64,000 bases of DNA from Candidatus Kaiserbacteria bacterium (GCA_017134395.1 CP070993.1:462199-526198), one strand, 5' to 3'; counted from the stretch's first letter, positions 459 through 44,410 are shown. The notes: generated from the letters alone by a model not told the origin. Made by a program: numbers and translations.

Positions 459-466
459 AATACACT

Positions 467-496
467 AAAACTCCCCTACTTTCGTAGGGGAGTTTT
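467..496 (+). terminator. Intrinsic terminator after tRNA-Ser.
   Basis: Perfect hairpin aaaactcccctac-tttcg-taggggagtttt with flanking T-run. Confidence 0.7.
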
Positions 497-657
497 AGTG
501 TATCTTGTCGACGGGATTCGAAAGGCGGAAGCCCGCGTGCGGGGCACGAGGAAGGGCTGAGCCCAGACCAAAAACACTTACGTAGAATTGAAGCGAAGTG
601 AACAATTGTACTTAGTGACTGGTGGTCGAATCCTTCTTTGAATATTTATGAACAAAA

Positions 658-692
658 TACTTAGCAGAGGTGACCGAATCCCTCCCTCTCCG
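658..692 (+). repeat. Partial direct duplicate of the tRNA-Ser 3' end (..gaccgaatccctccctctccg), att-like, about 215 bp downstream of the tRNA.
   Basis: cgaatccctccctctccg at 675-692 matches tRNA positions 441-458; it is preceded by the TACTTAG motif shared with the other tRNA-linked repeats. Confidence 0.6.
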
Positions 693-778
693 TATCGACA
701 TAAATAAACTTTTATGCTCTACTGCGCACAGCTTGTTCGTATTGACTCCATCTCAAATGAAAGAAAGGGTATCCTGCT

Positions 779-1189
779 ATGGAAACACAGGAAAAAGAAA
801 TTATTTGGGTTCCAGAAATCTCAGAAGAAGCGCTTGATGAACTTTTCAGAAGAATCAAGCCGGTGATTAGAATAGGTGACAATCTTCACCGAGTCAAAAT
901 AAAGCGGGAAAACTTGCGTGATACCGCATATTTATGGGGAGCAAAACTAAAGTGGAGAAGACAGAAAGGTCTTACGGTCTTGTGTGACATCAATACTTTT
1001 CATTACTGGACACGTCCGCTTTTTAAACCGTCTGTAGCTGAAGTATTGGCTCAGATACCAGAAGAATTCCTCGAAAAAGTAGTAGCGTTCGAAATTGTTG
1101 CGCTTGAACCTTTCAATTCTGAGCTGGGAAAGAAAGCTTTTAACGCTGGTTGTGCTACTGCAATCACAAGGCTTTATGTTCTAACATAA
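779..1189 (+). CDS. Hypothetical protein (136 aa), no recognisable family.
   Basis: ORF lying immediately after the tRNA/att-like repeat and followed by a hairpin plus T-run at about 1203-1245. Confidence 0.45.
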   Translation: METQEKEIIWVPEISEEALDELFRRIKPVIRIGDNLHRVKIKRENLRDTAYLWGAKLKWRRQKGLTVLCDINTFHYWTRPLFKPSVAEVLAQIPEEFLEKVVAFEIVALEPFNSELGKKAFNAGCATAITRLYVLT

Positions 1190-1255
1190 GCGGTGTTGTT
1201 GACATAAACAAAAGCGTGCGACCTTTGGGACGCGCGCTTTTTTGTAACTTGATAA

Positions 1256-1879
1256 TTACCTAGCGAGTTGCTCAGGAGACCGGTTAAAGTTTCTTTTCAC
1301 ATACTCTGTAATCTGTTCAACGTCCACAGTATCAAGCTCAAGTAGTCTACCCCACGAAGCAACAGCAATGTTGCTATCATTTGCTGACCGCGGTGAGACT
1401 ACAGTTCTACCAGAATAGTTTCTTCCAATATCTTCGAGTTTCTGAATATCCTCTTGGCTTAAGTCTTTATATGAGATCCAAATACCTCCATGCTCAAGGT
1501 TATGGACTACATTTTCGTCGATTAATTCATCTTGGTACACACCAAAATTAACCGGGGCACCGTGCGCGCCTGATGTAGGAGGATTCGTATTGTATGGATC
1601 GTGTGTTGCACCTATGGTTATATGCCCCGCTCCCATCACGGCGACTTGTTTGCCTGGCCGTGCTTCCTCTGATTTTTCAGCGGCACTAATACCCCAATAT
1701 ATCAAGGCACCCAAGGCAACAAATACCACCAACCATACTGCTATTTTCTTAATTTTTTTTGAACGAATACTTCTTGCACGCTGATGCTCTTTTGCGGCTC
1801 GTTTGTTATCTATTTTTTCCTTTCTACTAAGTTGTGGTTCTTGGTTTATATTTTCTTCATTTTGCATATTGATTTTCAC
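1256..1879 (-). CDS. DUF3105-family membrane-anchored protein.
   Basis: N-terminal TM segment; conserved YNTNPPTSG and HNLEHG motifs typical of DUF3105. Confidence 0.55.
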   Translation of the reverse strand: MKINMQNEENINQEPQLSRKEKIDNKRAAKEHQRARSIRSKKIKKIAVWLVVFVALGALIYWGISAAEKSEEARPGKQVAVMGAGHITIGATHDPYNTNPPTSGAHGAPVNFGVYQDELIDENVVHNLEHGGIWISYKDLSQEDIQKLEDIGRNYSGRTVVSPRSANDSNIAVASWGRLLELDTVDVEQITEYVKRNFNRSPEQLAR

Positions 1880-1886
1880 TTAATGA

Positions 1887-2429
1887 CTAATCTGTTACAC
1901 ATACTTGCGGTTCGCTAATTTTTTTTGCAGTTGTTACAACAGCATATATGAGTAGCGCCACACCGAGAATTCCAAATTCCTCACCCCCTAATGGTAAGAA
2001 CGAAATTATGCCAGCAGCACCAATAAATCCAAGTATCCATGTAAGAATGAAAGTCCCACAGGCAGCACATCCAATACCAAATATTCCACTAATCAAACCA
2101 CCAACACCTGCCATTGAATTCGTCCCTCGTATGATTGTTTTTTGTTTACGAACAAAGTACGCGAACAATGAAACATTAACTCCAAACAAGATGGCGATAA
2201 GAATGGTGTATGTTGCTGACACTACTGTAAAGTTTGTCTTGATGGATTCAGATAAACTGAGAACAAGTGTGACTTTGTCACGTAACTCAATACTCGGACT
2301 CGGGAGTATCTGCCACAATAATGCGAAGTTAGGTAGCAGTACTGCAAAAGTAAAGATGAGTAACGCGATTCCTACCGAAAGGGCGATATAGAAAGGACTG
2401 CGAAATACTTTGTATATACCATCCATCAT
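1887..2429 (-). CDS. Polytopic membrane protein with an intramembrane CxxC (GIGCAACGTF); possible thiol-disulfide partner of the adjacent DsbA.
   Basis: 4-5 hydrophobic segments, CAAC motif, and its position next to a DsbA-like gene; no firm family assignment. Confidence 0.35.
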   Translation of the reverse strand: MMDGIYKVFRSPFYIALSVGIALLIFTFAVLLPNFALLWQILPSPSIELRDKVTLVLSLSESIKTNFTVVSATYTILIAILFGVNVSLFAYFVRKQKTIIRGTNSMAGVGGLISGIFGIGCAACGTFILTWILGFIGAAGIISFLPLGGEEFGILGVALLIYAVVTTAKKISEPQVCVTD

Positions 2430-2432
2430 GCG

Positions 2433-3143
2433 TTATTTGCTATCTAAACCAATCTCTATGAGTTGTTTTACCGCTTCATAAGGTTGTGCACCAGAAAGTG
2501 GGTAGGTGGTACCGTCTGCCCCAATCACTACACTCCACGGCGTTCCGCGTCCACCAGTTTCTATAGCGTTTTGTATATCTTCCTCTATATGACTATCGTA
2601 CGTACCGCTATCCAAACACTCATTGAAAGCAGCTTCATTTAGCCCAATCTCTCTTACAATCTGTGGGATAACTGTGTCCAAGTCGGTTTGATTATTCGAT
2701 GGCGTCAATTCAAAAAAGCGGTCGGTAAACTGCCAAAATCCATCATTACCACCTAACTCTGCGGCACACTCAGATGCTACAGCTTCACGACGTGCTTTTA
2801 CTGGATGTAGTTGGTCGAGTGGGAATTGACGATACACCCATGCAACCTCGCCACTGTCCCCGTACTCATCCATAACTTGATTCATTGTTTCGTGAAAACG
2901 CTTGCAGAATGGGCATTCAAAATCTGAATATTCAACAATCTTTACTGGGGCGTTCGGATCTCCTTTAATGTGGTCTTGTGCTGTCACGGGATTCACTGCA
3001 TCCGTAGACCCATTTGCTTGTTGTTCTTGGGTATCGGCTGAAGCTTGACCAGCTGGATTGCTACTGCTGATAACCACTGCTGCTGCTACAAGCACTCCTG
3101 CGATAACTATTGCTACTGGTACTGCTAGTTGTTGTCCTTTCAT
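2433..3143 (-). CDS. DsbA-family thiol:disulfide oxidoreductase (thioredoxin fold), secreted or anchored.
   Basis: N-terminal TM/signal segment; CPFC active-site motif (SDFECPFCKRFH). Confidence 0.7.
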   Translation of the reverse strand: MKGQQLAVPVAIVIAGVLVAAAVVISSSNPAGQASADTQEQQANGSTDAVNPVTAQDHIKGDPNAPVKIVEYSDFECPFCKRFHETMNQVMDEYGDSGEVAWVYRQFPLDQLHPVKARREAVASECAAELGGNDGFWQFTDRFFELTPSNNQTDLDTVIPQIVREIGLNEAAFNECLDSGTYDSHIEEDIQNAIETGGRGTPWSVVIGADGTTYPLSGAQPYEAVKQLIEIGLDSK

Positions 3144-3150
3144 ATATTTT

Positions 3151-3537
3151 TTACTTTACATTATTTATTACTTTTTTTAATTTATCTTCAATTTCTTGAG
3201 CGATGCTTTGTAAGTCTTCGCTTTCTACCATAGACATAGCAACTGTTGGTAAAATAGAAGAAACGAAAACCTCGTCGTCCTTCTCGTACACAATAACATT
3301 ACATGGTAAAAGCAGTCCTATTTCTTGTTCTGCTTGCAAGGCTGTGTGAGCAAATGGTGGATTACACGCACCTAAAATTATGTAATTACCAAAATCAACA
3401 CCCAGCTTCTTTTTCAGAGTACCTTTTACATCAATTGTAGTTAATACACCGAAGCCTTCTGCTGATAGTTCCTCCGTTGTTTTTTCGACCGTTTTCTCGA
3501 AGTTTAGTGTTGATTTTTTCGTATATCCGTATGACAT
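3151..3537 (-). CDS. DUF302 domain protein.
   Basis: About 128 aa; the sequence pattern and its location beside a heavy-metal ATPase fit DUF302. Confidence 0.45.
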   Translation of the reverse strand: MSYGYTKKSTLNFEKTVEKTTEELSAEGFGVLTTIDVKGTLKKKLGVDFGNYIILGACNPPFAHTALQAEQEIGLLLPCNVIVYEKDDEVFVSSILPTVAMSMVESEDLQSIAQEIEDKLKKVINNVK

Positions 3538-3543
3538 AGTAAT

Positions 3544-5553
3544 TTATTGTAAGTTAATTTTTTTAAGCGTCATTGCGTTGACTACAACAATAACAGTTGA
3601 AAGACTCATGACCAAAGCTCCTATCTCAGGTCTTAAAAAGAATCCCCAAACAGCAAATACTCCAGCGGCGGCCGGAATAGCGATTATGTTGTACCCAAGC
3701 GCCCATACAAGATTTTGTATCATTTTTGAGTACACCTTTTTAGACAGTGTAATGAGACGAGCAATGTCACTTGGGTCATTGTCCATTAAAACAACATCGC
3801 CAGATTCAACCGCGACATCTGTTCCTGCACCAATTGCTACTCCGGCATTTGCTTGTGTAAGTGCAGGAGCATCGTTTACCCCATCACCAACCATGAGAAC
3901 AATATTTCCCTGTTCTTGGAGATCCTTTATGTGCGTATATTTGTCCTCTGGTAACACATTCGCAAAGTAGGTATCAATTCCCAACTCATCCGATACAGCT
4001 TTCGCCACCTGCTCATTATCTCCTGTAAGCATTGCAACTTTTACCTCCATATCGTGCAGCGCTTTTATTGCTGTGTACGATTCTTTTTTTATTGCATCTG
4101 CGAGAACAATGTAACCGAGTAGTTCTTTTTTATTAGCGACAAATACTATCGTCCCATTAATAGCGTTCGGTGATTCATGGTCAAACTGCAAACTCTTAAT
4201 TAGTCTCTCATTTCCAGCAAAATACTCTTCACCGTGTACCTTTGCTGTAATTCCCTGTCCTGCGATGTTCCGGAAATCAGAGATTTCCGATAATGCAATA
4301 TTTTTCTCCTTTGCATGAGCTACTATTGCATGTCCAATGATGTGAGAAGAATGTTGCTCTAGAGAAGCAGCAATTTCAATAATCCTGTTTTTATCTGATT
4401 CCTCCTTTGAAACTATTTCTGTCACACCAAACTCTCCTCTTGTCAGCGTTCCTGTCTTATCGAACACAACATAATCTGTTTTTCGAATAACCTCTATTTT
4501 AGAGAGGTCTTTGATAAAAAATCCATTCTTAACTGCAAGTGATGTCGTGATTGTTGTAACAGTTGGAATAGCGAGACCAAGTGCGTGCGGACATGCAATC
4601 ACTAACACTGTAATTGCGAGAGTGATGGCGAATACAAACGTTTCTCCCATGATAAGAGTCCAGACCAGTAGTGTAAGAAGTGCGGTTATTCCTGCAACAA
4701 ACGTCAATATAGCTGAAGCTTTATCAGCAATTTTTTGTGATCGTGGCTTTGTTCTTCCGGCTTCTTCTATTAACTTTTGAATTTGTCCGACGGTCGAATG
4801 CTCTCCGACACGAACAAGCTCTATTGTCAGTGCTCCATCTAAACAAATCGAACCTGCCACTACTTCATCGCCTTCGTGTTTTTCTATTGGTTTTGATTCT
4901 CCACTAATAAGTGACTCATCTACGTTAGCCGACCCAGTGATTAGTATTCCGTCAGCAGGAATTTTTTCTCCTGGTTTTACAATAACTACATCTTTCTCTT
5001 GTAACTCAGCTATATCAACATCAATTTCTTTCCCATCTACAAGTTTGTGAGCTTGTTTCGGTAACAATTTAGCAACTTCTTGCAGGGCATTTCCCGCAGC
5101 TCCGCTCGATTTTGCTTCTAGATAATGACCAAACAAAAGCACCCAAACCAGCGTTGAAATTTCAAGATAAAATTCAACCTCAAGAACTACGATAAACGTA
5201 GAGGCGACAGAAAATAAGTACCCTGCGCCAACAGCAAGTGATACGAGAGTCATCATGCCGTACTGTCTCGCTTTTATCTCATGCCACGCGTGTTTGAAAA
5301 ACACCAGCGCAAATCCAAAAATAATAGTAGCGATAATAAATTGAATCCACTTCCCTAATCCCAGCTCTCCGATACCGAGCAAACCAGCAATAAACTCATT
5401 GGTAAGAGCTAATGGAAGTAATAAGAAAGTAACAATCCAGAACCTTTTTAGGTAAGAACTCGCTGACCCATGATCCATTCCATGTCCGCCATGACTCGCA
5501 TGTGAAGAACTTTTCTCTTTGTGGTTAATGTGTGAAGAGTGATCCATACGCAT
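3544..5553 (-). CDS. Heavy-metal (copper) translocating P1B-type ATPase with His-rich N-terminus, CopB-like CPH motif.
   Basis: DKTGTLT phosphorylation motif, GDGVNDAPAL hinge, intramembrane CPH (IACPHALG), N-terminal HxxH-rich tail. Confidence 0.85.
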   Translation of the reverse strand: MRMDHSSHINHKEKSSSHASHGGHGMDHGSASSYLKRFWIVTFLLLPLALTNEFIAGLLGIGELGLGKWIQFIIATIIFGFALVFFKHAWHEIKARQYGMMTLVSLAVGAGYLFSVASTFIVVLEVEFYLEISTLVWVLLFGHYLEAKSSGAAGNALQEVAKLLPKQAHKLVDGKEIDVDIAELQEKDVVIVKPGEKIPADGILITGSANVDESLISGESKPIEKHEGDEVVAGSICLDGALTIELVRVGEHSTVGQIQKLIEEAGRTKPRSQKIADKASAILTFVAGITALLTLLVWTLIMGETFVFAITLAITVLVIACPHALGLAIPTVTTITTSLAVKNGFFIKDLSKIEVIRKTDYVVFDKTGTLTRGEFGVTEIVSKEESDKNRIIEIAASLEQHSSHIIGHAIVAHAKEKNIALSEISDFRNIAGQGITAKVHGEEYFAGNERLIKSLQFDHESPNAINGTIVFVANKKELLGYIVLADAIKKESYTAIKALHDMEVKVAMLTGDNEQVAKAVSDELGIDTYFANVLPEDKYTHIKDLQEQGNIVLMVGDGVNDAPALTQANAGVAIGAGTDVAVESGDVVLMDNDPSDIARLITLSKKVYSKMIQNLVWALGYNIIAIPAAAGVFAVWGFFLRPEIGALVMSLSTVIVVVNAMTLKKINLQ

Positions 5554-5560
5554 TAGATTC

Positions 5561-6046
5561 CTATTCTGTCTTCACTACTAACGCCTTAATTCGTACCTCT
5601 AGCTCTGGCGTAGCGCTCGCGTTTGTCTTTAAAAATACAGATCGTTGCGCAAGCCCTGTTCCTGAAGGACCGTGGGCTAGTGGATCATAGATAACAGTCA
5701 ACTCTTTCGTCTCTCCGGCAAGTATAACAAACTCCTTATTCATTTCTTCGTGCATACCGAAGCTAATCCCTCCAAGTGCAGCGTTAGTACAACCGCAACT
5801 GGTTGTGCCTTCTGTAACTACAACGTCATCCGGGCCCCCATTTGTTAGGGCAAAAGTTGTGGTAACTACTCCACTGAATATATCTACTTCACCAAAGTCG
5901 TGCATCTGCCTATCGACAGTCAACAGTGAAGAGCTTGTAGTTTGTTTACTCTCTACTGTTTGGTTTGTACCATCCGACAAGAGCATAATGCCTCCTCCGA
6001 CTAGAAGAGCTCCTATGAGTATAAGTAATGCAGTATTTGTTTTCAT
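5561..6046 (-). CDS. Secreted DUF1573-family protein.
   Basis: Signal peptide; HDFGEV and SCGCT motifs characteristic of DUF1573. Confidence 0.5.
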   Translation of the reverse strand: MKTNTALLILIGALLVGGGIMLLSDGTNQTVESKQTTSSSLLTVDRQMHDFGEVDIFSGVVTTTFALTNGGPDDVVVTEGTTSCGCTNAALGGISFGMHEEMNKEFVILAGETKELTVIYDPLAHGPSGTGLAQRSVFLKTNASATPELEVRIKALVVKTE

Positions 6047-6064
6047 AATTTATATATATGTTAC

Positions 6065-6973
6065 CTATTCGCCTTCTAAGATATCAACCGTGATTTTCAC
6101 TTCTGCCTCAAGATTGTTTGGGTCATTTGTTGGAATAAAAATAGTTCTAGTTAACTTATCTGAAGGCTCCTTATGAAAGTCGGGGTCAAAGTAAACGGTC
6201 AGAATAGCCGCATCACCAGGTGCAATATTTTCATTCGATATCTCTGCTGTGGTGCAGCCACAACTAGTACTTAGTTCGCCAATATTAAGGAGACTTTTCC
6301 CAGTATTTCTCACCGTAAAGGTAGTTTGAAGAATTCCTTGAGATTGGGGAACATCGCCAAAATCGTGCACTGCGCGATCAAAGGATATGCGTGCATCAGA
6401 ATCGTTTACCGAAGTAATATTTGAGTCAGTGCCGTCATACTCCCCAGTTTCAGTGAATGGATACTTATCTTCTTGCCAGTGCACCATACCACCTGCGACA
6501 CTGGTGATATTTGTATAGCCAAGAGAGTTCATAATGTCATATGCTTGTTTGCTGCGAGCGCCACTACGGCAATATATGATTATTTCTTTGTCCTTTGCGT
6601 TATCCCCAAGATTAATGCCGGCAAGTGTATTCGCTGAAAGTTCTCCGACCGGAAGGAGTAGTGCGTTCTCTAAATGAACTTCTGCATATTCTTCTGGAGT
6701 TCTTACATCAAGAAGCACGATATCTTTATTCCTTCTAATTTTTTCTACGACATCTCGTGGGCTCATTTCATAGCTATCTACGTAATCTGTATGGTACTCA
6801 TCATGACCAAACATCATATCCATCATTCCACCATATTCATGTTCATCGTGGTCATGATCGTGATTATGGCCAGTATGAAATCCTATGTGTGTGACATTAT
6901 TTAAGAAGAAGAATCCTAGAATAATAACGAGGATAGAAATAAGTACCGTCGTAAATACATTGGAATTGTTCAT
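6065..6973 (-). CDS. Membrane-anchored fusion of a His-rich metal-binding segment, a rhodanese (sulfurtransferase) domain and a DUF1573 domain.
   Basis: HTGHNHDHDHDEH tract; rhodanese active site IYCRSGARS; C-terminal VHDFGDV...SCGCT repeats the DUF1573 motifs of the neighbouring gene. Confidence 0.6.
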   Translation of the reverse strand: MNNSNVFTTVLISILVIILGFFFLNNVTHIGFHTGHNHDHDHDEHEYGGMMDMMFGHDEYHTDYVDSYEMSPRDVVEKIRRNKDIVLLDVRTPEEYAEVHLENALLLPVGELSANTLAGINLGDNAKDKEIIIYCRSGARSKQAYDIMNSLGYTNITSVAGGMVHWQEDKYPFTETGEYDGTDSNITSVNDSDARISFDRAVHDFGDVPQSQGILQTTFTVRNTGKSLLNIGELSTSCGCTTAEISNENIAPGDAAILTVYFDPDFHKEPSDKLTRTIFIPTNDPNNLEAEVKITVDILEGE

Positions 6974-6975
6974 AA

Positions 6976-7245
6976 TTATTTCTTTAATTTATATACTTTC
7001 AAAATTTCAGTCACTGCTTTCTTCTGTTCACCTGTTTTAATCTGGGTAATAACACAAGAAGACAGGTGCTTCTCTAGTAACACATCCTCAACTCCCCTCA
7101 AGGCATTACGAATGGCAGACGTCTGAGTAATAACGTCAATGCAGTATGTATCTTCTTCCACCATTCTTTGGAGACCCCTGATTTGGCCTTCAATTCTCTT
7201 TAGGCGATTGTTCACTAATTTCTTATCAGCTTTCACAAATTCCAT
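6976..7245 (-). CDS. csoR: CsoR/RcnR-family metal-sensing transcriptional repressor.
   Basis: 89 aa, DUF156-like; conserved YCIDV...Q..A and C-x-H/C pattern; sits at the head of the copper gene block. Confidence 0.7.
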   Translation of the reverse strand: MEFVKADKKLVNNRLKRIEGQIRGLQRMVEEDTYCIDVITQTSAIRNALRGVEDVLLEKHLSSCVITQIKTGEQKKAVTEILKVYKLKK

Positions 7246-7316
7246 TATACCCCATAGGGGTATAATGACAAACGATCAATTGTGTCTGTATTATATAGAG
7301 CGTGTGAGGGCTTTTA

Positions 7317-8261: not shown

Positions 8262-9270
8262 ATTCTTTAATATACCTCATGATAACATCTGCAAGCTTAC
8301 GACTATCATGACGAATGAATGAGCGTGTGTGTGCAAGAGCATCGCCCGTGCCACCTTCTGTTGTTTTTTCATTGAGGAAATCCTCTCCAATAATACGTGT
8401 GGTGTTTTTGTGAGTATCACATGATACAAACATCCCCTTTCCTTCTTGTTCTTCATATCGCCGTGCCAACTCTTCGCTCGGTTCTGCAGTATTACATACA
8501 AGCACATCGATACTTCTCCCACGTAAGTGTTTTTCAACTGTTGTTGCGTAGGTATGTGCACTAAATCCACCGGTGAGCCCTTTTTTGTTGGTAACGTTTG
8601 CTACAACTGCGATATGTGCTGATGTGTCGCGTAATGATTGTGAGATACCTTCTACAAGTAGGTTGGGAATAATGCTCCCGTGCACATCACCCGGACCAAT
8701 CACTACGAGGTCTGCTTTTGTAATTGCTTCAAGTGCTTCAGCTGAAGCAGTAACTGGGTACGCGAGCGAAATCTCTCTTACGCCATGTTCGCGCACGCGC
8801 TCATCATCATCAAGATAACTCTCCCCTTCAAGAACGACACCATTATTCAATTCTACCAGTAAGCGCATGTCTCCCTCCGTAACTGGCAGTACCCGTCCAT
8901 ATACATTGAGAATCTTTCCTGCAACTGCAACTGCTTTTGGAAAACTACCTGTTATCTTTTCAAGTGCAGAAAGAAATAAATTACCGGCGTTGTGTCCTTT
9001 TATATCACCATGCAAAAATCGATAGCTAAATAGCTCTCGCACTTCAGGAGTTGCTCGAGCAAGCGCGGCAAGGCATTGCCGCACATCACCTGGCGGCAAC
9101 ACTCCTAAATCATCGCGCAGCACTCCGGTCGAACCCCCGTCATCAGCCATGCTAACAATCGCTGATATGTGTATAGGAAATTCCTTAAGACCAGACAAAA
9201 GTACGAAGCTGCCCGTTCCTCCTCCGATAGTTACTATGCGTGGCTGTCGGCTATTTTTTGTTGTTTCCAT
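8254..9270 (-). CDS. YvcK/CofD-like (UPF0052, gluconeogenesis factor family) protein. The true start is probably the internal ATG at 9270 (METTKNSRQPRIVTIGGGTG), not the annotated 9438.
   Basis: IVTIGGGTGSFVLLSGL...MADDGGSTG motif typical of YvcK/CofD; the N-terminal 56 codons of the ORF overlap the divergent pilin promoter. Confidence 0.65.
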   Translation of the reverse strand: METTKNSRQPRIVTIGGGTGSFVLLSGLKEFPIHISAIVSMADDGGSTGVLRDDLGVLPPGDVRQCLAALARATPEVRELFSYRFLHGDIKGHNAGNLFLSALEKITGSFPKAVAVAGKILNVYGRVLPVTEGDMRLLVELNNGVVLEGESYLDDDERVREHGVREISLAYPVTASAEALEAITKADLVVIGPGDVHGSIIPNLLVEGISQSLRDTSAHIAVVANVTNKKGLTGGFSAHTYATTVEKHLRGRSIDVLVCNTAEPSEELARRYEEQEGKGMFVSCDTHKNTTRIIGEDFLNEKTTEGGTGDALAHTRSFIRHDSRKLADVIMRYIKEYV

Positions 9271-9325
9271 AGCTATGCATCTAATCTTATTGAATAGAAA
9301 GCAGTATGTCGATACAATGCATTGT

Positions 9326-9730
9326 ATGAAACGTGGTTTTACGATTATTGAGCTGCTTGTAGTCATGGCAATTATTGGCATGCTTGCATCAATAATGTTT
9401 GTTACATTCTCAACACTCCAGGCAAAATCACGTGACACTCGTAGAGTAGAAGACGTTCGAGAATTACAAAAAGCGCTTGGGATGTATTATATTGAAGGCA
9501 ACCAATTCCCTATTTCTGCCTCGGCAGTAAACATTACAGGTTCTGATCCTGTGTCAACGACACTTATAAATAATGGGGTGATTTCAGGAATTAGTGGCGA
9601 TCCCGTAAGCCCAACGTACGATTATACTTACCAAACATCTGGTCCAGGTAACTACACTATTACCTTCTGTCTCGAAACTGATTCAATACAAAAATATGTT
9701 CAAGGATGTACCAACACAGTTTCTAATTAG
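9326..9730 (+). CDS. Type IV pilin-like (prepilin-type N-terminal cleavage/methylation) protein.
   Basis: MKRGFTIIELLVVMAIIGMLA class-III leader (G|FTxIE); the annotated longer ORF begins inside the divergent gene. Confidence 0.7.
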   Translation: MKRGFTIIELLVVMAIIGMLASIMFVTFSTLQAKSRDTRRVEDVRELQKALGMYYIEGNQFPISASAVNITGSDPVSTTLINNGVISGISGDPVSPTYDYTYQTSGPGNYTITFCLETDSIQKYVQGCTNTVSN

Positions 9731-9751
9731 CAGTAGTGTCACATACGTATC

Positions 9752-10213
9752 ATGCCACAAAACATCGTTTGGAAAGCATACGAACACTCCCACACAGATA
9801 AAGGATCTGACTGGTTTTGGGCGCTTGGAATCGTTGCCTTTTCGAGTGCCTTAGTTGCGGCTCTTTTTCAAAACTTCCTCTTTGCCCTTTTAATTCTTGT
9901 GGGTGCATTTACGCTTGCCCTTCTTTCGGCTCGCCCTCCTCGAGAACTTGAATTTGCACTCACCCCCCAAGGAGTACGTATAGACAATGCGCTCTATCCA
10001 TACCAAATGCTTATATCGTTTTGGATTAAAGACAGAGAAACTGACCACGCAGAACTCATCATTGACGCACGTAAATTTATGACGCCTCACCTTATTGCCT
10101 CTTTGGAAGATACAGATGTTGAATCAGTACAAGCGTACCTTGAACAGTTTCTTCCAGAAGAAGAGCTTGAAGAACCCTTTGTGCAACGCATCTTAGAGAG
10201 ATTTGGTTTCTAA
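9752..10213 (+). CDS. Hypothetical membrane protein (2 TM).
   Basis: ORF with two hydrophobic helices; no family recognised. Confidence 0.4.
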   Translation: MPQNIVWKAYEHSHTDKGSDWFWALGIVAFSSALVAALFQNFLFALLILVGAFTLALLSARPPRELEFALTPQGVRIDNALYPYQMLISFWIKDRETDHAELIIDARKFMTPHLIASLEDTDVESVQAYLEQFLPEEELEEPFVQRILERFGF

Positions 10214-10276
10214 TAACTGGTAATACACCAGTAATTTTGTATAGTAGTGCCTACTTATACCTATTGTGTATAAGGG

Positions 10277-10353
10277 TCGCACCACAAGAGTACTTCCATT
10301 ATTTCTAAGAGCATAGCTCTAAGAAAAATTGGTCGCACCACCAAGGCACTTCT
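10277..10353. repeat. Two ~22-bp direct repeats (GGTCGCACCACMAAG..ACTTC) upstream of tRNA-Arg.
   Basis: ggtcgcaccacaagagtacttcc and ggtcgcaccaccaaggcacttc, about 55 bp apart; read directly. Confidence 0.6.
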
Positions 10354-10376
10354 TGTTTTGTAAACAAAACAAAGTC

Positions 10377-10448
10377 GCTCCCGTAGTTCAATGGATAGAA
10401 TACAGGTTTGCGGAACCTGAGATCTAGGTTCGACTCCTAGCGGGAGCA
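10377..10448 (+). tRNA. tRNA-Arg (anticodon read as GCG).
   Basis: Acceptor gctcccg/cgggagc; anticodon stem caggt/acctg with loop ttgcgga; T-arm ctagg-ttcgact-cctag. Confidence 0.75.
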
Positions 10449-10461
10449 CTAGAAAACCAAG

Positions 10462-10495
10462 ACCGTAACGCGATTAAGCGTTACGGTTTTTGGGT
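10462..10495 (+). terminator. Intrinsic terminator after tRNA-Arg.
   Basis: Hairpin accgtaacgc-gattaa-gcgttacggt followed by tttttgggttt. Confidence 0.7.
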
Positions 10496-10641
10496 TTCTT
10501 GATTCAGCTAGGAGTCGAAAGACGGAGGCGGTATACAAGACGAGTGAAACGAGTGCTTGTCGCCGAGTCAAGGCAGGAGCCACTTAGGAGCGGAGCGAGT
10601 TAGTGAGCTGCGCCGACTCCTACGTAAAAGTGTGAAAATTA

Positions 10642-10662
10642 TACTTAGTGATTCGTGACCAC
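10642..10662 (+). repeat. Copy of the tRNA-linked motif TACTTAGTGATTCGTGACCAC.
   Basis: Matches the motifs at 608-630 and 14614-14634; see findings. Confidence 0.6.
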
Positions 10663-10697
10663 AAAGGTAATTAAAAAACCGCCCAATTGGGCGGTTT

Positions 10698-10961
10698 TTA
10701 TGCTACGTTTGCAACATCACGAGCAATCTTAGCTTTCTTTCGTGATGCGTTGTTTTTCTTTATAATTCCGCGTTTTGCTGCCTTATCAATTGCTTTGTAT
10801 GCCTTTGGAAGAAGCTCCTCGGCGGTCTTTTTTTCTTTTTTACCAACAAGAGTAGCAATTTCTTTCATTGCCTCTTTCATAGCGCGAAGACGACGTACGT
10901 TGAAAACACGACGGGCTTCCGCTTGTATAACTGACTTCTTTCCTGATTTCGATGTTGCCAT
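10698..10961 (-). CDS. rpsT: 30S ribosomal protein S20.
   Basis: 87-aa basic protein with the S20-like layout (MATSKSGKKS...AEARRVFN...). Confidence 0.8.
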   Translation of the reverse strand: MATSKSGKKSVIQAEARRVFNVRRLRAMKEAMKEIATLVGKKEKKTAEELLPKAYKAIDKAAKRGIIKKNNASRKKAKIARDVANVA

Positions 10962-11020
10962 GAATGGGCAATATACTGTATTTATCTACGAAACGCAATG
11001 CTCGTGGTATGATTTGTTCA

Positions 11021-11584
11021 ATGATTATACAGTTACGCGGCACAGTAGTGGGAAAAGACCCTGAATACATAATTCTCGACGTAAGTGGCGTTGGCTATAA
11101 AGTATTTGTTACTCCAGAAACATTAGCTCATACTCCAGAGGATAAAGAAGCAGCAGTATGGACACATCTAGCTGTTCGAGAGACATCACTTGATATTTAT
11201 GGATTCCTTAAACGAGAAGACATGCTTTTCTTTGAACTCCTCATCGGAATTTCAGGTGTTGGTCCAAAGTCTGCCCTATCCATACTTAGTCTTGCTGATG
11301 TCACGACTCTCACCAGTGCGATTTCCCAAGGAGATACTTCATACCTCACAAAGGTTTCTGGCATTGGTGCCAAGAGTGCTCAAAAAATAGTACTTGAGTT
11401 AAGTGATAAGGTAGGAGCACTAAGCGAAAACCCGTCACTGAAAGAAGATGCAGACGCAATTGACGCTCTCACCGCAATGGGGTACTCGGTGTCAGAAGCG
11501 CGAACCGCGCTTAAAGCTGTTCCAAAAGATGTCGAAGGTGCTAACGCACGCTTAAAGCAGGCATTAAAAGCGCTCGCTCAGTAA
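11021..11584 (+). CDS. ruvA: Holliday junction branch-migration protein RuvA.
   Basis: Begins MIIQLRGTVV...; HhH region GIGPKSA; start moved to the internal ATG at 11021. Confidence 0.8.
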   Translation: MIIQLRGTVVGKDPEYIILDVSGVGYKVFVTPETLAHTPEDKEAAVWTHLAVRETSLDIYGFLKREDMLFFELLIGISGVGPKSALSILSLADVTTLTSAISQGDTSYLTKVSGIGAKSAQKIVLELSDKVGALSENPSLKEDADAIDALTAMGYSVSEARTALKAVPKDVEGANARLKQALKALAQ

Positions 11585-11594
11585 TATTTACTAT

Positions 11595-12872
11595 ATGCAT
11601 ACACTCAAAAGACTCATACCAAAACCGCTGTACCAAATGATAGCGCCTCTCTACCACCACGCTCTTGCGTGGGTTGGTGCACAATTATACGGACATCCTT
11701 CAAAGAAAATAAACGTTGTTGCTATTACTGGCACAAAAGGAAAATCGAGTGTCAGTGAATTGGTACATAGTATATTAGAGCACGCTGGCTACAAGACGGC
11801 ACTTGTAAGTACTATCCATTTTAAAATGGGATCACATAGTGAGCCCAATAAACTCAAGATGACAATGCCTGGCCGCTTCTTTCTGCAAAAGTTTCTTAAA
11901 AAAGCAGTTGACGCCAACTGTGATTGGGCTGTCATTGAAATGACATCTGAAGGTGCTAGCCAGTTTCGTCATATCAACATTGAGACTGATGCGCTCATTT
12001 TCACAAATATCACTCCTGAACACATCGAATCCCACGGTTCGTTTGAAAACTATCTTGCTGCAAAACTTTCTATTGGAAAAGCCCTAGAGAAATCGAAAAA
12101 ACCCTCCCGGATTATTGTGGCAAATGCCGATGATGAACATGGGGCTGATTTCTTAGCACTTCATGTGGACAGAGCGCTACCTTTTACACTTGAGTATGCA
12201 AAACCATGGTCTACAACCGAAAGCGGCACACAAATAACATTTGAAGGTACCACCATACACTCTCCTATTCCGGGTGAATTCACTGCATACAACATGCTTG
12301 CTGCTGCCACATTCGCACGCGCCATAGGAGTGGGCATCAAGCACATTAAGGCGGGACTTGAAGCAACACAGCTTATTCCAGGACGAGTAGAGCCTATTGC
12401 AATTGGTCAAGATTTTAAAGTTATTGTAGATTACGCGCACACCATCGAATCTCTTGAGAAACTCTACCAGGCATTCCCAAACAAAAAGAAAATATGCGTC
12501 CTTGGAAACACCGGTGGTGGCCGGGATACATGGAAACGTCCCAAAATGGCAGCACTTGCAGAAAAATACTGCGAACGAGTTATCCTTACTGATGAAGATC
12601 CGTATGATGAAGACCCTGAGTCTATCGTGCAAGAAATGGCAGCTGGAATGAACACGAGGCCTGAAATTATAATGGATCGTCGGCGCGCAATTCGAGCAGC
12701 AATAGAATTAGCAAAAGGTAATGCCGAGAGTGCAGTGCTTATAACCGGAAAAGGAACTGATCCATATATTATGCGCGCTAACGGTGACAAAGAGCCTTGG
12801 AGCGACGCTACTGTGGCACGTGAAGAGTTACAGGCAGCACTTGGTGATACTAAAAGTGCTGCTACTATATAA
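11595..12872 (+). CDS. Mur ligase family protein (MurE/MurF-like ATP-dependent amino-acid ligase).
   Basis: P-loop VVAITGTKGKSS, central Mur ligase domain, C-terminal domain; exact substrate not assignable. Confidence 0.6.
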   Translation: MHTLKRLIPKPLYQMIAPLYHHALAWVGAQLYGHPSKKINVVAITGTKGKSSVSELVHSILEHAGYKTALVSTIHFKMGSHSEPNKLKMTMPGRFFLQKFLKKAVDANCDWAVIEMTSEGASQFRHINIETDALIFTNITPEHIESHGSFENYLAAKLSIGKALEKSKKPSRIIVANADDEHGADFLALHVDRALPFTLEYAKPWSTTESGTQITFEGTTIHSPIPGEFTAYNMLAAATFARAIGVGIKHIKAGLEATQLIPGRVEPIAIGQDFKVIVDYAHTIESLEKLYQAFPNKKKICVLGNTGGGRDTWKRPKMAALAEKYCERVILTDEDPYDEDPESIVQEMAAGMNTRPEIIMDRRRAIRAAIELAKGNAESAVLITGKGTDPYIMRANGDKEPWSDATVAREELQAALGDTKSAATI

Positions 12873-12874
12873 GT

Positions 12875-13786
12875 ATGTTAAAGAAAATTTTTGTTATTGG
12901 CGGAGCTATTTTGATTTTACTTTTTGTCTGGTTCACGTTTCAATCAGTCAAGAATGCACTCACAACAAATACCAAAAGTGAAAGCAGCTTCTTTGGAGCT
13001 GACTTTTTCTTTCCTTTTCCAAGTGACATTATGCAAAGTATCTCCTTCCAAGATACTAATCGAGTAGCACAAGTAAGTCTTGAAGAACTTGGTGAATTCT
13101 CTCCGGCACAAGGACTTGTAGAAATAGAAGAAAATACTGCGCATATAAGTGTTTCGGACGTGAATGATGAATACATCATTATTCGTGCGCTTGAAACAAA
13201 CGTGCAGCCAGTAAACATCAGTAATTGGTCGCTTCAAAGCATGGTAAGCGACGAATGGATAGGGCTACCACAGGGAGCCCCTCTGTACATTCTTGGAGAA
13301 GTAAATGAGGTACAGGATATCTATCTAGCACCAGGCGAACGAGCAATTATATCAACAAGTCAATCGCCTGTCGGTGTTTCGTTTCGCGTTAATCGCTGCT
13401 CTGGATTTCTAAATGACACTCAAGATTTTGACCCCCCTATTCGTACCGCGTGTATTAACCCACAAGAAATTCTGTTACCTACTGCACAGAACATAAAAGA
13501 CTACGGTGCTTCATGTGTCTCATTTGTTGAACGAATAGGAAGCTGTACGTATGTCACCAGTGATCTCAAAGAAATTTTGGATGTCTCACAGGCATGTAAA
13601 GACTTTATCAAACCGCTTCTTACCTATAACTACTGCATCAACACGCACGCTGGTGATGCTGATTTTTACGAAAAAAACGAATGGCGAATATTTTTAAATG
13701 AGGACAAAGCACTGTGGCGAGAGAATTACGAAATAGTGCGTTTGCTCGATGAAAAACATCGAACTGTTGATGTTATTACGTATTAG
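12875..13786 (+). CDS. Hypothetical membrane-anchored or secreted protein, possibly with a lamin-tail-like domain.
   Basis: N-terminal TM segment; the ISNWSLQS...APGERAII pattern resembles LTD domains. Confidence 0.4.
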   Translation: MLKKIFVIGGAILILLFVWFTFQSVKNALTTNTKSESSFFGADFFFPFPSDIMQSISFQDTNRVAQVSLEELGEFSPAQGLVEIEENTAHISVSDVNDEYIIIRALETNVQPVNISNWSLQSMVSDEWIGLPQGAPLYILGEVNEVQDIYLAPGERAIISTSQSPVGVSFRVNRCSGFLNDTQDFDPPIRTACINPQEILLPTAQNIKDYGASCVSFVERIGSCTYVTSDLKEILDVSQACKDFIKPLLTYNYCINTHAGDADFYEKNEWRIFLNEDKALWRENYEIVRLLDEKHRTVDVITY

Positions 13787-14246
13787 TACTAAGTGAAAAC
13801 AAAACAATACCTGCAGTCACACTTACGTTCAGTGACTCCTTCTTTCCATGCATTGGTATCTCAACTATGTAATCGCTCTTATCGCGCAACTGCTTCGACA
13901 CCCCTCGTACTTCGTTACCAAGTATCAGTGCCATCTTGGGCAATGTCTTGAAGTCGTTTAAAACAATAGATCGCTCATCTTGCTCTATCGATATAATACT
14001 AAAGCCTTCTTTCTTCAAATCTTTTAATACGTTGTTAATGTCTCCCGATTCCCATCGTACATACTCTTGTCCACCAAGAGCGGTCTTGGCGATATCTTTT
14101 TGGGGACGACCAAAACGATCAATTGGCTTAGGTGTGTATCCGGTAAGATACATTTTAGTGACGCCTGCTGCATCAGCTGTTCGAAAGATAGAACCCACAT
14201 TGTGAGTACTCCGTATGTTGTGCAATATTACAATAACCTCATTCAT
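13776..14246 (-). CDS. SpoU/TrmH-family RNA 2'-O-methyltransferase.
   Basis: SPOUT motifs (LILGNEVRGVS, IPM.G...SLNVSVTAGIVLF). Confidence 0.75.
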   Translation of the reverse strand: MNEVIVILHNIRSTHNVGSIFRTADAAGVTKMYLTGYTPKPIDRFGRPQKDIAKTALGGQEYVRWESGDINNVLKDLKKEGFSIISIEQDERSIVLNDFKTLPKMALILGNEVRGVSKQLRDKSDYIVEIPMHGKKESLNVSVTAGIVLFSLSTNT

Positions 14247-14317
14247 GCTGCATACTATACAATAAGACTGTAAAAATAGTGTATGTATGCTATATTTTGC
14301 ACCATTCCCGCCCGTAG

Positions 14318-14380
14318 CTCAGTTGGTAGAGCAGCGGCCTTTTAAGCCGAATGTCGTAGGTTCGAGTCCTACCGGGCGGA
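14318..14380 (+). tRNA. tRNA-Lys (anticodon UUU).
   Basis: Acceptor ccgcccg/cgggcgg; D-arm gctcagttggtagagc; anticodon loop cttttaa; T-arm gtagg-ttcgagt-cctac. Confidence 0.8.
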
Positions 14381-14392
14381 CAAACGTAAAAA

Positions 14393-14432
14393 TATAAGCA
14401 CTTCCCGTGAATAGGAAGTGCTTATATTTTTA
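14393..14432 (+). terminator. Intrinsic terminator after tRNA-Lys.
   Basis: Hairpin tataagcacttcc-cgtgaata-ggaagtgcttata followed by a T-run. Confidence 0.7.
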
Positions 14433-14572
14433 GCAAGCAAACTGCTTTGCTTGCGGCGTTTGTCCGAGACGGAACCATGTTTTGCGATTTTCCCTGAGCG
14501 AAACGGGTGAGTCCGGGCAGGAGGTTCTTAATGAACGTAGTGAATTTAGAAACCTGACGCGACATATAAAGC

Positions 14573-14700
14573 ACTTAGTAAAATTGGAGAGTACGAATAA
14601 TTTTACTTAGTGACTTGTGACGACATAATGAATTGAATGAAATTTACATAGTGATGGGTGGCGACAAATATAAAACCCACCTAATAAATGTGTGGTGACA
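14573..14700 (+). repeat. Cluster of 3-4 copies of the tRNA-linked motif (CACTTAGTA..., TACTTAGTGACTTGTGACGAC, TACATAGTGATGGGTGGCGAC, GTGTGGTGACAAAC).
   Basis: Read directly; same consensus as the copies at 608-630 and 10642-10662. Confidence 0.6.
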
Positions 14701-14821
14701 AACAATCTAATTTGTTACTCTAAAAACAGAGACCTCTTGGCCAATCGTACTATGGGAGGAAGGTTGGCTAAGAAGCGGCTCGGAAAGGATCGCTTGGCCA
14801 GTGATCCTTTTCTTTGCCTCT

Positions 14822-38685: not shown

Positions 38686-38932
38686 ACGTATTTTTTATTT
38701 TCCTCAACGTTTATATATTAGGACTGTGTGTATGTGGACAAAGGTATAAGTACCTAAAGTATTAAACACTTTTTAAATAAATACTCTGTGGGTTACTAGG
38801 TGAGAAACAAACAATAAGAGTGTTAACAACTAATACCTAAAAAATATTTTAAGATTTTTTGTGGACAACCTTTTAATAATTAACATAGTTATCAACACCA
38901 AATCCCAACATCTACACACAACTAATTAACAC

Positions 38933-42287: not shown

Positions 42288-42307
42288 CTAATTTAAGTTG
42301 ATCCTTT

Positions 42308-43108: not shown

Positions 43109-43126
43109 ATGTATCTGCTTAGTATA

Positions 43127-44407: not shown

Positions 44408-44410
44408 ATA

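Follow-up and report, generated by a model that had tools for sequence, protein, structure and literature searches.

Each of the three tRNA genes in the 64,000-nt stretch of Candidatus Kaiserbacteria DNA analysed here (the window) is followed by a compact structured segment, and these segments are probably non-autonomous, site-specific mobile cassettes for tRNA gene ends in a Patescibacteria lineage. The family is apparently undescribed, no description of the unit having been found in the literature searched. Its members are ~160-230 bp long, lack an ORF and are highly base-paired, and their parts come in one order outward from the tRNA: an intrinsic terminator, an inverted tRNA copy of 8-19 nt drawn either from the T-loop/T-stem or from the acceptor end plus trailer, a GC-rich three-way-junction core and a displaced tRNA 3' end.

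ARAGORN and Rfam place tRNA-Ser(UGA) at 373-458, tRNA-Arg(GCG) at 10377-10449 and tRNA-Lys(UUU) at 14308-14381, all on the plus strand; a first-pass annotation made from the sequence had tRNA-Ser right but started tRNA-Lys at 14318, off by 10. It had also described a terminator after each tRNA, and A-tract/hairpin/T-tract arrangements are indeed found at 460-502, 10459-10490 and ~14387-14432. In every case this strong, bidirectional-looking terminator separates the structured core from the tRNA. The reported GC enrichment is real in the cores (0.55-0.58 GC against 0.415 window-wide); the tails are AT-rich, unlike the cores. A plus-strand hairpin with a T-run exists at ~14786-14820, but it does not show that the whole segment is co-transcribed with the tRNA, as had been suggested: a terminator intervenes between tRNA and core.

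The unit after tRNA-Ser has the highest covariance model score (match 496-653, plus strand, 140 bits). Its left arm (459-512) consists of a trailer, a 20-bp terminator hairpin (460-479 paired with 484-503) and a short spacer. It is followed by the 5' strand of helix P1, or guide, GGGATTCGAA (513-522), which exactly reverse-complements TTCGAATCCC (438-447), the tRNA-Ser T-loop with the 3' strand of its T-stem. An inverted T-arm copy is thus present as proposed, only at 513-522 and not at 503-512. The core (523-625) contains P2 (GGC-GGA-A[hairpin]U-GA-GCC), P3 (ACCA paired with TGGT) and P4, a long hairpin formed by CACTTACGTAGAATTG on the 5' side (575-590) and the motif discussed below on the 3' side (604-620). 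The P1 3' strand and a decayed displaced copy of the tRNA-Ser 3' part, TCGAATCCttctttg, occupy 626-640. Further out, at 658-692, an older unit that underwent internal deletion has left its right end, TACTTAGCAGAGGTGAC, directly against a copy of the tRNA-Ser end; the direct duplicate of the tRNA 3' end that had been noted here is genuine, 675-692 matching 441-458 over 18 nt exactly.

After tRNA-Arg, a left arm of trailer and terminator hairpin (10450-10506, hairpin 10459-10490) leads into guide, core with P2 and P4, and P1 3' strand (10507-10622; covariance model match 10493-10640, 51 bits), again on the plus strand. The guide GCTAGGAGTCGAA (10507-10519) is the reverse complement of tRNA-Arg 10429-10441, TTCGACTCCTAGC, just where an inverted T-arm copy had been reported; P4 is formed by CCACTTAGGAGC...GTTAGTGAGC, and the P1 3' strand is CGACTCCTA (10614-10622). 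An older acceptor-end-type unit has left its right end at 10642-10669, where sequence and motif scan show the motif and then GTGACCACAAAGGTA, a sequence similar to the end of tRNA-Arg together with the trailer found in the relative UBA2100 (GGGAGCACAAAAGTA). The third unit, after tRNA-Lys and likewise on the plus strand, is itself of the acceptor-end type. Its left arm (14382-14456) carries the terminator hairpin (~14387-14432) and a second hairpin, GCAAGCAAACTGCTTTGCTTGC (14433-14454), which is conserved and covaries among acceptor-end-type copies. Guide, core and P4 span 14457-14624 (covariance model match 14440-14648, 45-47 bits), with an extra hairpin inserted in the core at 14523-14556 and P4 running from CACTTAGTA at 14572 to the motif at 14604-14624. 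The guide CGTTTGTCCG (14457-14466) is the reverse complement of the last bases of tRNA-Lys plus trailer, CGGACAAACG (14377-14386); this third inverted tRNA copy was absent from the first-pass annotation. Two more remnant right ends with tRNA-Lys-end-like tails, TACATAGTGATGGGTGGCGACAAAT and GTGTGGTGACAAAC, were located by sequence and motif scan at 14645-14702.

The motif itself, TACTTAGTGAYNNGTGRNSAC, had been described as clustering after tRNAs, which holds within the 64-kb window: allowing up to 3 mismatches, it has four matches (starts 609, 10642, 14604 and 14645, all plus strand), every one less than 300 nt downstream of one of the three tRNA genes. Shuffles give a chance expectation of 0.17 matches per 64 kb, and 0 of 100 reached four. 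The earlier copies at 608 (here 609), 10642 and 14645 were recovered, as were a variant (658-674) and a partial copy (14690-14702); the copy claimed at 14614-14634 really lies at 14604-14624, and what was taken for a partial copy at 14581-14590 proves to be block C (CACTTAGTA, 14572-14580). This block is the 5' strand partner of the motif in P4, ~30 nt upstream. The motif is the 3' strand of a long covarying hairpin within a conserved unit and not a stand-alone site, which rules against an independent shared regulatory site. Its surplus copies (658-692, 10642-10669 and 14645-14702) are remnants. To that extent the idea of miniature integrative-element remnants was correct, but each full copy is a whole unit, conserved in size and architecture, and no random leftover of a larger island.

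A covariance model run with filters off found only three matches in the window, each starting 38-60 nt past a tRNA on the same strand, and 28 further full matches in 17 other metagenomic or MAG loci, all 28 co-oriented with a tRNA or pseudo-tRNA end. Units follow tRNAs for Ser, Leu, Ala, Tyr, Trp, Cys, Lys, Arg and Glu; since retrieval of the outside loci relied on a pattern derived from the element, the frequency of units among tRNAs outside the window is biased upward. Structural conservation, put forward earlier as a check on the copies, was borne out by both RNAalifold and the covariance-model alignment, with a conserved fold and strong covariation. Compensatory changes affect 22 of 31 RNAalifold pairs in a MAFFT alignment, and 25 of 31 pairs in the overall count. 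In the covariance-model alignment, 94.1% of cells are paired, compared with 27-41% in slid controls, and the covariation score is 0.463, compared with 0.05-0.08 in controls; 0 of 500 shuffles reached 0.463. Junction and internal-loop nucleotides are also conserved among copies. The 846 cells include 770 Watson-Crick, 24 G-U and 16 A-C pairs, so that there is almost no excess of G-U over A-C and no transcribed strand is identified.

Guides match their own tRNA: exact matches to the cognate tRNA are 10.8 nt long on average (range 5-19), those to non-cognate tRNAs 5.4 nt, and in the acceptor-end type the cognate match takes in 4-11 nt of unconstrained trailer. A direct copy of the tRNA end of at least 8 nt (8-38 nt) is present in 11 of the 19 units of other loci. 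The duplicated tRNA piece measures ~3-6 nt in the acceptor-end type and 16-95 nt in the T-loop type; at the upper extreme, in locus L032, a 95-nt direct repeat flanks the core and the inverted tRNA similarity extends over 30 nt. The tRNA-Ala units of loci L028 and L029 are orthologous (79% identity, 72-80% for neighbouring genes). The L028 guide matches its own changed T-loop exactly (TTCGAGTCC), and the L029 guide departs from the T-loop of its tRNA (TTCGAATCC) at a single position, where a G-U pair would still be possible. Judging from these comparisons, the tRNA-Ala unit appears to have been kept under constraint in both.

The first-pass annotation had spoken of a family of small tRNA-linked elements with att-like duplicates of tRNA ends, and comparison of relatives indeed shows insertion, replacement and accumulation in tandem. 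Locus L022 carries an extra 174-nt unit relative to L044, placed exactly at the tRNA-Trp end between flanks of 89-96% identity, with 6 nt aligning twice. At tRNA-Arg, the window and UBA2100 align through the last base of the tRNA and again from the rpsT terminator, and the interval holds different family members in the two. At tRNA-Lys, the proximal units of the window and of L031 differ, and the distal remnants are partly common to both. A unit at tRNA-Tyr in L043 is absent from syntenic L037, and in L033 and L023 the displaced tRNA end runs directly into the native spacer before the next tRNA. Tandem arrays at tRNA ends carry decayed distal remnants. For the T-loop type, neither an excised or circular form nor a truly empty site with identical flanks was recovered.

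We searched for known families and for an enzyme. Only the three tRNAs reach the Rfam 15 gathering score in the window, and E-value scans of the three segments gave only weak, terminator-driven matches (BTnc231, RNAI, GibS); BTnc231 scored 28.7 bits against a gathering score of 80.4, and the part of the tRNA-Ser unit that it aligned is the terminator hairpin. Self-cleaving ribozymes (hammerhead, twister, twister-sister, pistol, hatchet, HDV-like) gave no match at E<=10 in the Ser- and Arg-linked segments or at E<=1 in the Lys-linked segment; by eye, CUGA(U)GAG and GAAA are not arranged around the junction in hammerhead order. A check for an integrase gene sharing the att core had been proposed; neither the 64-kb window nor the surroundings of the copies at 14 loci (up to 2.5 kb away) showed an integrase- or recombinase-like ORF, the ORFs being inspected mostly by eye and Pfam being run on selected ones. 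Transposase and reverse transcriptase genes were likewise not seen, partly by eye, in the window or beside any copy, and viral, phage and plasmid collections yielded no autonomous relative. Since no such gene was seen, the mobilising activity is hypothetical.

Could the units simply be genes for a structured non-coding RNA, transcribed by read-through or from their own promoter, with a segment that pairs with the pre-tRNA or tRNA to control, for example, its 3' processing, stability or folding, mobility being secondary? Strong covariation and the conserved junction and internal-loop nucleotides would suit such a gene, as would a purine fraction of 0.55-0.61 on the plus strand of the units, the apparent constraint on the tRNA-Ala unit, and acceptor-end-type guides that span a tRNA end/trailer junction found only in the precursor. 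We nevertheless regard it as unlikely: a strong terminator always lies between tRNA and core, neither strand showed a conserved promoter, the units match no Rfam family, and G-U pairs, barely more numerous than A-C (24 against 16 of 846 cells), are atypically rare for a one-strand RNA. An RNA gene alone also leaves the displaced tRNA 3' ends, tandem arrays and clean insertions unexplained. The two ideas partly overlap, as a mobile unit may act through RNA too. That the motif is a protein-binding or promoter site common to tRNA-adjacent regions, a proposal based on a TAnAAT-like hexamer (minus strand ...TCACTAAG-TAnAAT, a possible -10 box) in most copies, is very unlikely: the hexamer belongs to the P4 stem, in its AT-rich part, and changes together with the strand it pairs with, becoming CACAAT in UBA2100 because the P4 partner changed there, no -35 box stands at a usable spacing, and a consensus scan found no promoter.

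Direct repeats of tRNA 3' ends, variable regions downstream of tRNAs (at times with small ORF cassettes) and extra motif copies that truly are remnants all recall what the first-pass annotation had suggested, namely larger integrated elements (prophages, islands) whose interior was lost and whose attL/attR scars have decayed. This origin is improbable in light of more than 25 independent copies at nine tRNA types sharing size, part order and covarying fold, which random deletions would not yield; moreover, a unit of 174 nt went in cleanly in one piece, the flanks of the copies hold neither integrase nor phage genes, and no similarity to phage or plasmid records was found. Likewise improbable is an origin with no dedicated element, in which template switching extends the terminator palindrome and creates the inverted tRNA copy, and unequal recombination between tRNA-like repeats then makes tandem units. 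The left arm is indeed one long imperfect palindrome centred on the terminator, and L032, with its 30-nt inverted similarity and 95-nt direct repeat around the core, would fit such events. Unexplained, however, would be the near identity of the core among nine tRNA types and many genomes, the constant abutment of the inverted copy on a conserved AGGCGGA block and the non-complementary acceptor strand between two stems; cores more than 90% identical across loci also argue against a purely local origin.

Mobile cassettes of this kind would have several counterparts. Elements that integrate into tRNA genes, and their non-autonomous derivatives (genomic islets, CIMEs mobilised by accretion), likewise insert in one orientation, bring a tRNA 3' part that restores the tRNA end, displace the original end as a direct repeat and accumulate in tandem. 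T-loop and 3'-end crossover sublocations were reportedly distinguished by Williams in 2002, and the units here also show two junction classes, T-loop and extreme 3' end; unlike those elements, they span 160-230 bp without any gene, no integrase was found, and they have a covarying three-way-junction fold and an internal inverted target copy. Folded single-stranded recombination sites are known from integron attC cassettes and from the CTX-phage attP hairpin used by XerCD. Intrastrand pairing that could rebuild a duplex target copy, fixed-site entry in one orientation with older units shifted distally, and almost purely Watson-Crick stems with conserved mismatch positions are shared with these, whereas the target here is a tRNA gene end that varies with the tRNA, no dif-like site or nearby intI/attI is present, and a single-stranded intermediate is only inferred. 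An integron cassette proper was rejected, the P1 strands being tRNA-derived (GGGATTCGAA, TCGAATCC) and without R/L boxes (RYYYAAC...GTTRRRY), with no intI in the window; so was a MITE, as the unit ends are not mutual inverted repeats and the duplicated tRNA piece varies in length.

In IS200/IS605 ends and PATEs, short internal guide sequences read the cleavage and target site. Like PATEs, the units are small, non-coding and hairpin-rich, with an internal segment complementary to the junction, strand-specific insertion 3' of a defined sequence (the tRNA end) and a right end that repeats the target and would permit tandem insertion. In contrast, their guides pair canonically over 8-19 nt instead of 4-5 nt, their core forms a three-way junction, their target changes from tRNA to tRNA, the T-loop type duplicates at least 16-23 nt of tRNA, and the sequence examined showed neither a TnpA nor a TnpB gene. 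The bridge (seek) RNAs of IS110/IS1111 are encoded within an IS of 1.2-1.5 kb, next to its DEDD recombinase gene, and present bipartite guides in two internal loops. They too are structured non-coding parts that match target and element junction, making specificity programmable; a bridge RNA was rejected here because no ORF lies in or beside the units, which form a three-way junction with one contiguous complementary segment.

How the proposed cassettes might move can be sketched as follows. A unit would enter at the 3' end of a tRNA gene in one orientation only, the T-loop type bringing a replacement for the 3' portion of the tRNA and the acceptor-end type beginning immediately past it. Each would come with an intrinsic terminator, with 8-19 nt reverse-complementary to the tRNA stretch at the junction and with the conserved three-way-junction core, whose last hairpin strand is the motif. 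The original tRNA 3' end would be moved to the far side of the unit, hence the direct repeats, and newcomers would enter beside the tRNA, shifting older units outward to decay, hence the extra motif copies. The complementary segment may pair with the junction copy of the tRNA sequence as helix P1 and so restore the target site as a duplex within a folded single strand, on which an enzyme encoded elsewhere (recombinase or transposase) would act through recognition of the conserved core. The fold would be analogous to a folded single-stranded DNA attachment site or else to an RNA guide; because a double-stranded circle of ~200 bp is physically awkward, an intermediate that is single-stranded or multimeric must be assumed. 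Lasting retention of the tRNA-Ala unit would also fit an RNA that benefits the host.

The window, part of a Patescibacteria (CPR) genome, carries three plus-strand tRNA genes, for tRNA-Ser (373-458), tRNA-Arg (10377-10449) and tRNA-Lys (14308-14381). The first-pass annotation had reported a motif shared by GC-rich segments downstream of each of them. Indeed, a search with TACTTAGTGAYNNGTGRNSAC at up to 3 mismatches gave four matches (starting at 609, 10642, 14604 and 14645), all on the plus strand, where shuffled sequences lead one to expect 0.17; the cores of the segments reach a GC content of 0.55-0.58 against 0.415 for the window. The inverted T-loop/T-stem copies are exact over 10 nt for tRNA-Ser and 13 nt for tRNA-Arg, and at 675-692 all 18 nt of the direct duplicate agree with the tRNA-Ser end. 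Some positions had been placed 10 nt off: the motif put at 14614 begins at 14604, and the inverted T-arm copy put at 503-512 lies at 513-522. An inverted copy is also present after tRNA-Lys, where CGTTTGTCCG at 14457-14466 pairs with 14377-14386, corresponding to the last tRNA bases and the first trailer bases.

Further copies were collected by iterated nhmmer searches and then with a covariance model (CM) built from 20 copies. A metagenome scan seeded with the conserved internal block YGAGYCMAGRCMRRANNYACTTAG returned 23 loci, comprising 18 true copies and 5 chance matches within coding sequence. With the CM, 31 full units were found in 183 kb, and the link to tRNA genes seen in the window extends to every one: all 31 lie 38-84 nt 3' of a tRNA gene (whole or truncated by the contig end) or of the pseudo-tRNA 3' end that an earlier unit left behind, always in the same orientation. 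The tRNAs concerned are those for Ser, Leu, Ala, Tyr, Trp, Cys, Lys, Arg and Glu. An unfiltered CM search of the window gave exactly three significant matches, all on the plus strand: unit 1 (496-653, 140 bits), unit 2 (10493-10640, 52 bits) and unit 3 (14440-14587/14648, 45-47 bits). The next-best score, 12 bits, comes from the P4 hairpin of unit 3 (14572-14612), a palindrome, read on the reverse strand, and all others are below 9 bits. In the retrieved locus L039 (1467-1839), a tRNA-Glu gene is followed by two units in tandem that are more divergent and richer in GC (0.59-0.61); nhmmer missed them and only the CM detected them, so the family is broader than the pattern used to collect it.

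All units are built alike. A trailer and an A-tract/hairpin/T-tract terminator, always there but not conserved in sequence, follow the tRNA. Acceptor-end units alone then have another conserved hairpin (GCAAGCAAACTGCTTTGCTTGC), with a covarying stem. Next comes a segment complementary to the adjacent tRNA, which in the T-loop type extends from TTCGA over 8-19 nt in the 3' direction, and in the acceptor-end type spans the final 5-6 nt of the tRNA and 4-11 nt of trailer. Exact complementarity averages 10.8 nt with the cognate tRNA versus 5.4 nt with non-cognate tRNAs. The core reads AGGCGGA ... GAGCCCAGACCAAAAG ... CACTTAGTA-loop-TACTTAGTGACTGGTGG, and the right end ...ACTGGTGG. Last is a direct copy of the 3' part of the tRNA: T-loop units have 16-38 nt of it (at most 95 nt), acceptor-end units about 3-6 nt. 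What lies beyond looks like native sequence, for example the spacer to the next tRNA gene.

The consensus fold, obtained with RNAalifold on a MAFFT alignment, is a three-way junction. P1 joins the complementary segment to the tRNA-derived copy 3' of the motif; P2 has the form GGC-GGA-A[hairpin]U-GA-GCC, with a G-C to A-U switch in which AGGCGGA/AGACGGA goes with GAGCCC/GAGTCC; P3 pairs ACCA with UGGU; and P4 is a long hairpin with CACUUAGUA... as its 5' strand and the motif as its 3' strand. Compensatory changes occur in 22 of 31 pairs. In the CM alignment (31 distinct rows), 94.1% of cells are paired, double changes affect 25 of 31 pairs and the covariation score is 0.463; this alignment is fitted to the model, and the independent MAFFT result agrees. 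When partners were slid by 1-3 columns, 27-41% of cells were paired and the score was 0.05-0.08, and none of 500 shuffles reached the observed values. Single-sequence folding was unconvincing (z-scores from -2.65 to +0.53), and the structure is evident only when copies are compared.

Because the covarying P4 pairs the motif with an upstream strand, the motif is half of a hairpin, neither a free-standing site, such as the shared regulatory site that the first-pass annotation listed among its options, nor a promoter. A minus-strand promoter with a -10-like TAnAAT hexamer was rejected since the hexamer belongs to the covarying AT-rich stem and has no -35 box, and no conserved promoter was found in the units. 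In the window, the plus-strand motif copies at 609-625 and 14604-14624 each form the P4 3' strand of a full unit, and the P4 3' strand of unit 2 is GTTAGTGAGC at about 10599-10608. The remaining copies are what is left of the right ends of older units with internal deletions, each followed by a tRNA-end-like tail: 658-674 (CGAATCCCTCCCTCTCCG), 10642-10662 (CCACAAAGG), 14645-14665 (GCGACAAAT) and about 14690-14702 (GGTGACAAAC).

Insertion became apparent on comparison of related loci. One relative, 'Patescibacteria group bacterium UBA2100' (a 6.9-kb contig, L021), was the sole one found by a protein-based scan of 185,579 species genomes, with 91% identity for its protein match and 84-87% at the nucleotide level. 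At tRNA-Arg, the two sequences align to the last tRNA base and again just 5' of the rpsT terminator, and the non-aligning interval measures 218 bp in the window versus 454 bp in UBA2100. The UBA2100 insert has the part order of the units and blocks in common with the Ser- and Lys-linked segments of the window. The region downstream of tRNA-Arg behaves as a replaceable cassette. At tRNA-Trp, loci L022 and L044 have flanks 89-96% identical, and L022 holds an additional 174 nt precisely at the tRNA end, a complete acceptor-end-type unit; six bases, CCGCAA, align at both sides of it. At tRNA-Tyr, L043 has a unit where the syntenic L037 has an unrelated small ORF (at least 118 aa). Such variable islets after tRNA genes sometimes contain small ORFs without Pfam match that replace or follow a unit, as does a 52-aa ORF after the tRNA-Arg unit of UBA2100 (L021 2960-3200, minus strand).

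Units also accumulate and decay. In the window, tRNA-Arg is followed by a T-loop-type unit and then by the right-end remnant of an acceptor-end-type unit, whose tail GTGACCACAAAGGTA resembles the tRNA-Arg end plus a UBA2100-type trailer; UBA2100 still holds an acceptor-end-type unit there. At tRNA-Lys, the window and L031 have different proximal units and common distal remnants (CCTGACGCGACATATAAA.CACTTA...), indicating that newcomers enter beside the tRNA. Tandem units were found in L022, L033, L038, L039 and L031, and in L032 a 95-nt block (T-loop, 3' end, trailer, terminator and complementary segment) stands on both sides of a 113-nt core. All together, these comparisons demonstrate site- and orientation-specific insertion at tRNA gene ends by units that bring their own terminator and complementary segment, have a conserved fold, form arrays and decay. 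One unit is nevertheless retained: a tRNA-Ala unit is orthologous in L028 and L029 (79% identical, neighbouring genes 72-80%). The segment in L028 exactly matches its altered T-loop (TTCGAGTCC), and that in L029 (GGATTTGAA) deviates at a single position from the T-loop of that locus (TTCGAATCC), where a G-U pair could still form. Such retention counts against pure selfishness.

Several other features of these loci deserve mention. A module of about 47 nt, AAGAGTACTTCCATTATTTCTAAGAGCATAGCTCTAAGAAAAATT, lies upstream of tRNA-Arg (10275-10345), flanked on each side by an 11-nt direct repeat (GGTCGCACCAC). It recurs at the corresponding position in UBA2100 (L021 3560-3582, minus strand) and, in L043, interrupts a displaced tRNA-Trp T-arm copy (5025-5085; CGATT|module|CTCTCATCGCC); possibly it is another insertion element, smaller still than the units. 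A terminator scan also flagged an ACGT-rich, perfect palindrome of 20 bp (GTACAACGTACGTATGGACGTACGTACGTCCATACGTACGTTGT, 287-332), which stands 40 nt 5' of tRNA-Ser. The stretch 14700-14825, which separates the tRNA-Lys array from the stop codon of a convergent gene, folds with unusual stability (z = -3.98) into three hairpins, the last a plus-strand terminator; it is partly conserved in L031 and may represent either a small RNA or the terminator region that tRNA-Lys originally had. L044 (1-541, minus strand) contains a unit whose distal tRNA-like end derives from a different tRNA (CGATTCCCCGTAGAGTCA), beside a truncated ORF containing ...NGNCFVEQKNSTHVRKSFGYLRF... that by eye resembles a DDE (rve-type) transposase; the 66-aa ORF piece had no Pfam match. 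The foreign end and adjoining ORF suggest rearrangement at such loci. Finally, dnaN (37582-38685) and dnaA (38933-40291), both on the minus strand, coincide with the GC minimum of the window (0.334 at 38-40 kb) and a flattening of the cumulative GC skew, so a replication origin is probably near 37582-40500. With an origin there, all three tRNA genes and their units would run head-on into replication, which most genes around them do not.

The existence of a real and apparently undescribed family is strongly supported. Rfam, at gathering score and by E-value, returned nothing except tRNAs; weak matches to BTnc231, GibS and RNAI align to terminator hairpins only. Pattern scans of viral contigs gave chance matches, none scoring with the CM, blastn searches of phage and plasmid collections in distant mode gave no match, and exact-protein look-ups of window genes found no record. 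The units were not described in a full-text literature search, nor are they mentioned in a study of group I introns in Patescibacteria tRNA genes (PMC13011429). By eye, hammerhead, box C/D, group I/II intron guide, T-box and tRNA-primer-binding-site readings have the wrong part order or pairing rules, and the units lack the defining features of MITEs, attC cassettes, bridge RNAs and known ribozymes. They have in common with tRNA-integrating islands the logic of att repeats, and with integron cassettes that of arrays. We lean towards a gene-less, structured insertion cassette, specific for tRNA ends and equipped with a target-complementary segment.

Our confidence in any mechanism of insertion is much lower. 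The complementary segment matches the tRNA-proximal junction perfectly, including unconstrained trailer bases, and the displaced distal copy more poorly, which suggests that a perfect P1 would arise where a right end meets a left end, as in a circle or a tandem arrangement. In that case P1 would mirror the target as a duplex that includes the crossover point. The three-way-junction scaffold would recruit a recombinase or transposase acting in trans, and the variable segment, as a target copy, would set which tRNA gene end is entered. The target duplex might be rebuilt in folded single-stranded DNA, a tRNA-directed analogue of integron attC or CTX-phage attP, whose target-duplex folding works like the proposed P1; guide-to-cleavage-site pairing at IS200/IS605 ends is similar. 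Alternatively, the segment would act as an RNA guide, in a bridge-RNA-like system separated from its enzyme. Of the 846 cells scored, 770 hold Watson-Crick pairs, 24 G-U, 16 A-C and 36 other combinations; so few wobbles and a near-zero G-U/A-C asymmetry are odd for an RNA made from one strand, and compatible with selection on DNA pairing or recent spread. The plus strand is purine-rich (0.55-0.61), so the two strands differ in their loops, and a terminator separates tRNA and core in every unit. Where the tRNA gene does not encode CCA, the displaced tRNA copies gain none, which argues against a mature-tRNA intermediate. The first-pass annotation had advised looking for an integrase gene that shares the att core; no recombinase gene was found in the window or in the available sequence around the copies. 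The window does encode a PilB-type type IV pilus ATPase (24153-25853), a pilin (9326-9727) and, within 42300-56000 and 62250-63776, a cluster in which a VirB4/TraG-like ATPase (45907-47763) is accompanied by numerous membrane or secreted proteins, as well as a ComM-like Mg-chelatase-family protein. Together these look like DNA-uptake or transfer machinery, making single-stranded DNA uptake plausible on circumstantial grounds. That the units are programmable mobile cassettes without genes, with the scaffold recruiting an enzyme in trans and the adjacent target copy selecting the tRNA end through either a single-stranded DNA fold or an RNA guide, is a tentative proposal that we hold to be rather doubtful. 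Under it, the near constancy of the scaffold across at least 9 tRNA species would amount to natural guide swapping.

If true, the units constitute a new class of mobile DNA, miniature and site-specific, in the reduced Patescibacteria genomes, occupying a large share of tRNA gene ends (three of three in the window). They rewrite tRNA 3' ends and terminators, confound the annotation of tRNA fragments, and create hypervariable islets and dispersed repeats that are possible drivers of rearrangement. Read conservatively, the units are still a structured family with strong covariation that is missing from Rfam. Moreover, pairing between guide and target junction suggests that target choice is programmed by nucleic acid, and could point to an unknown recombinase.
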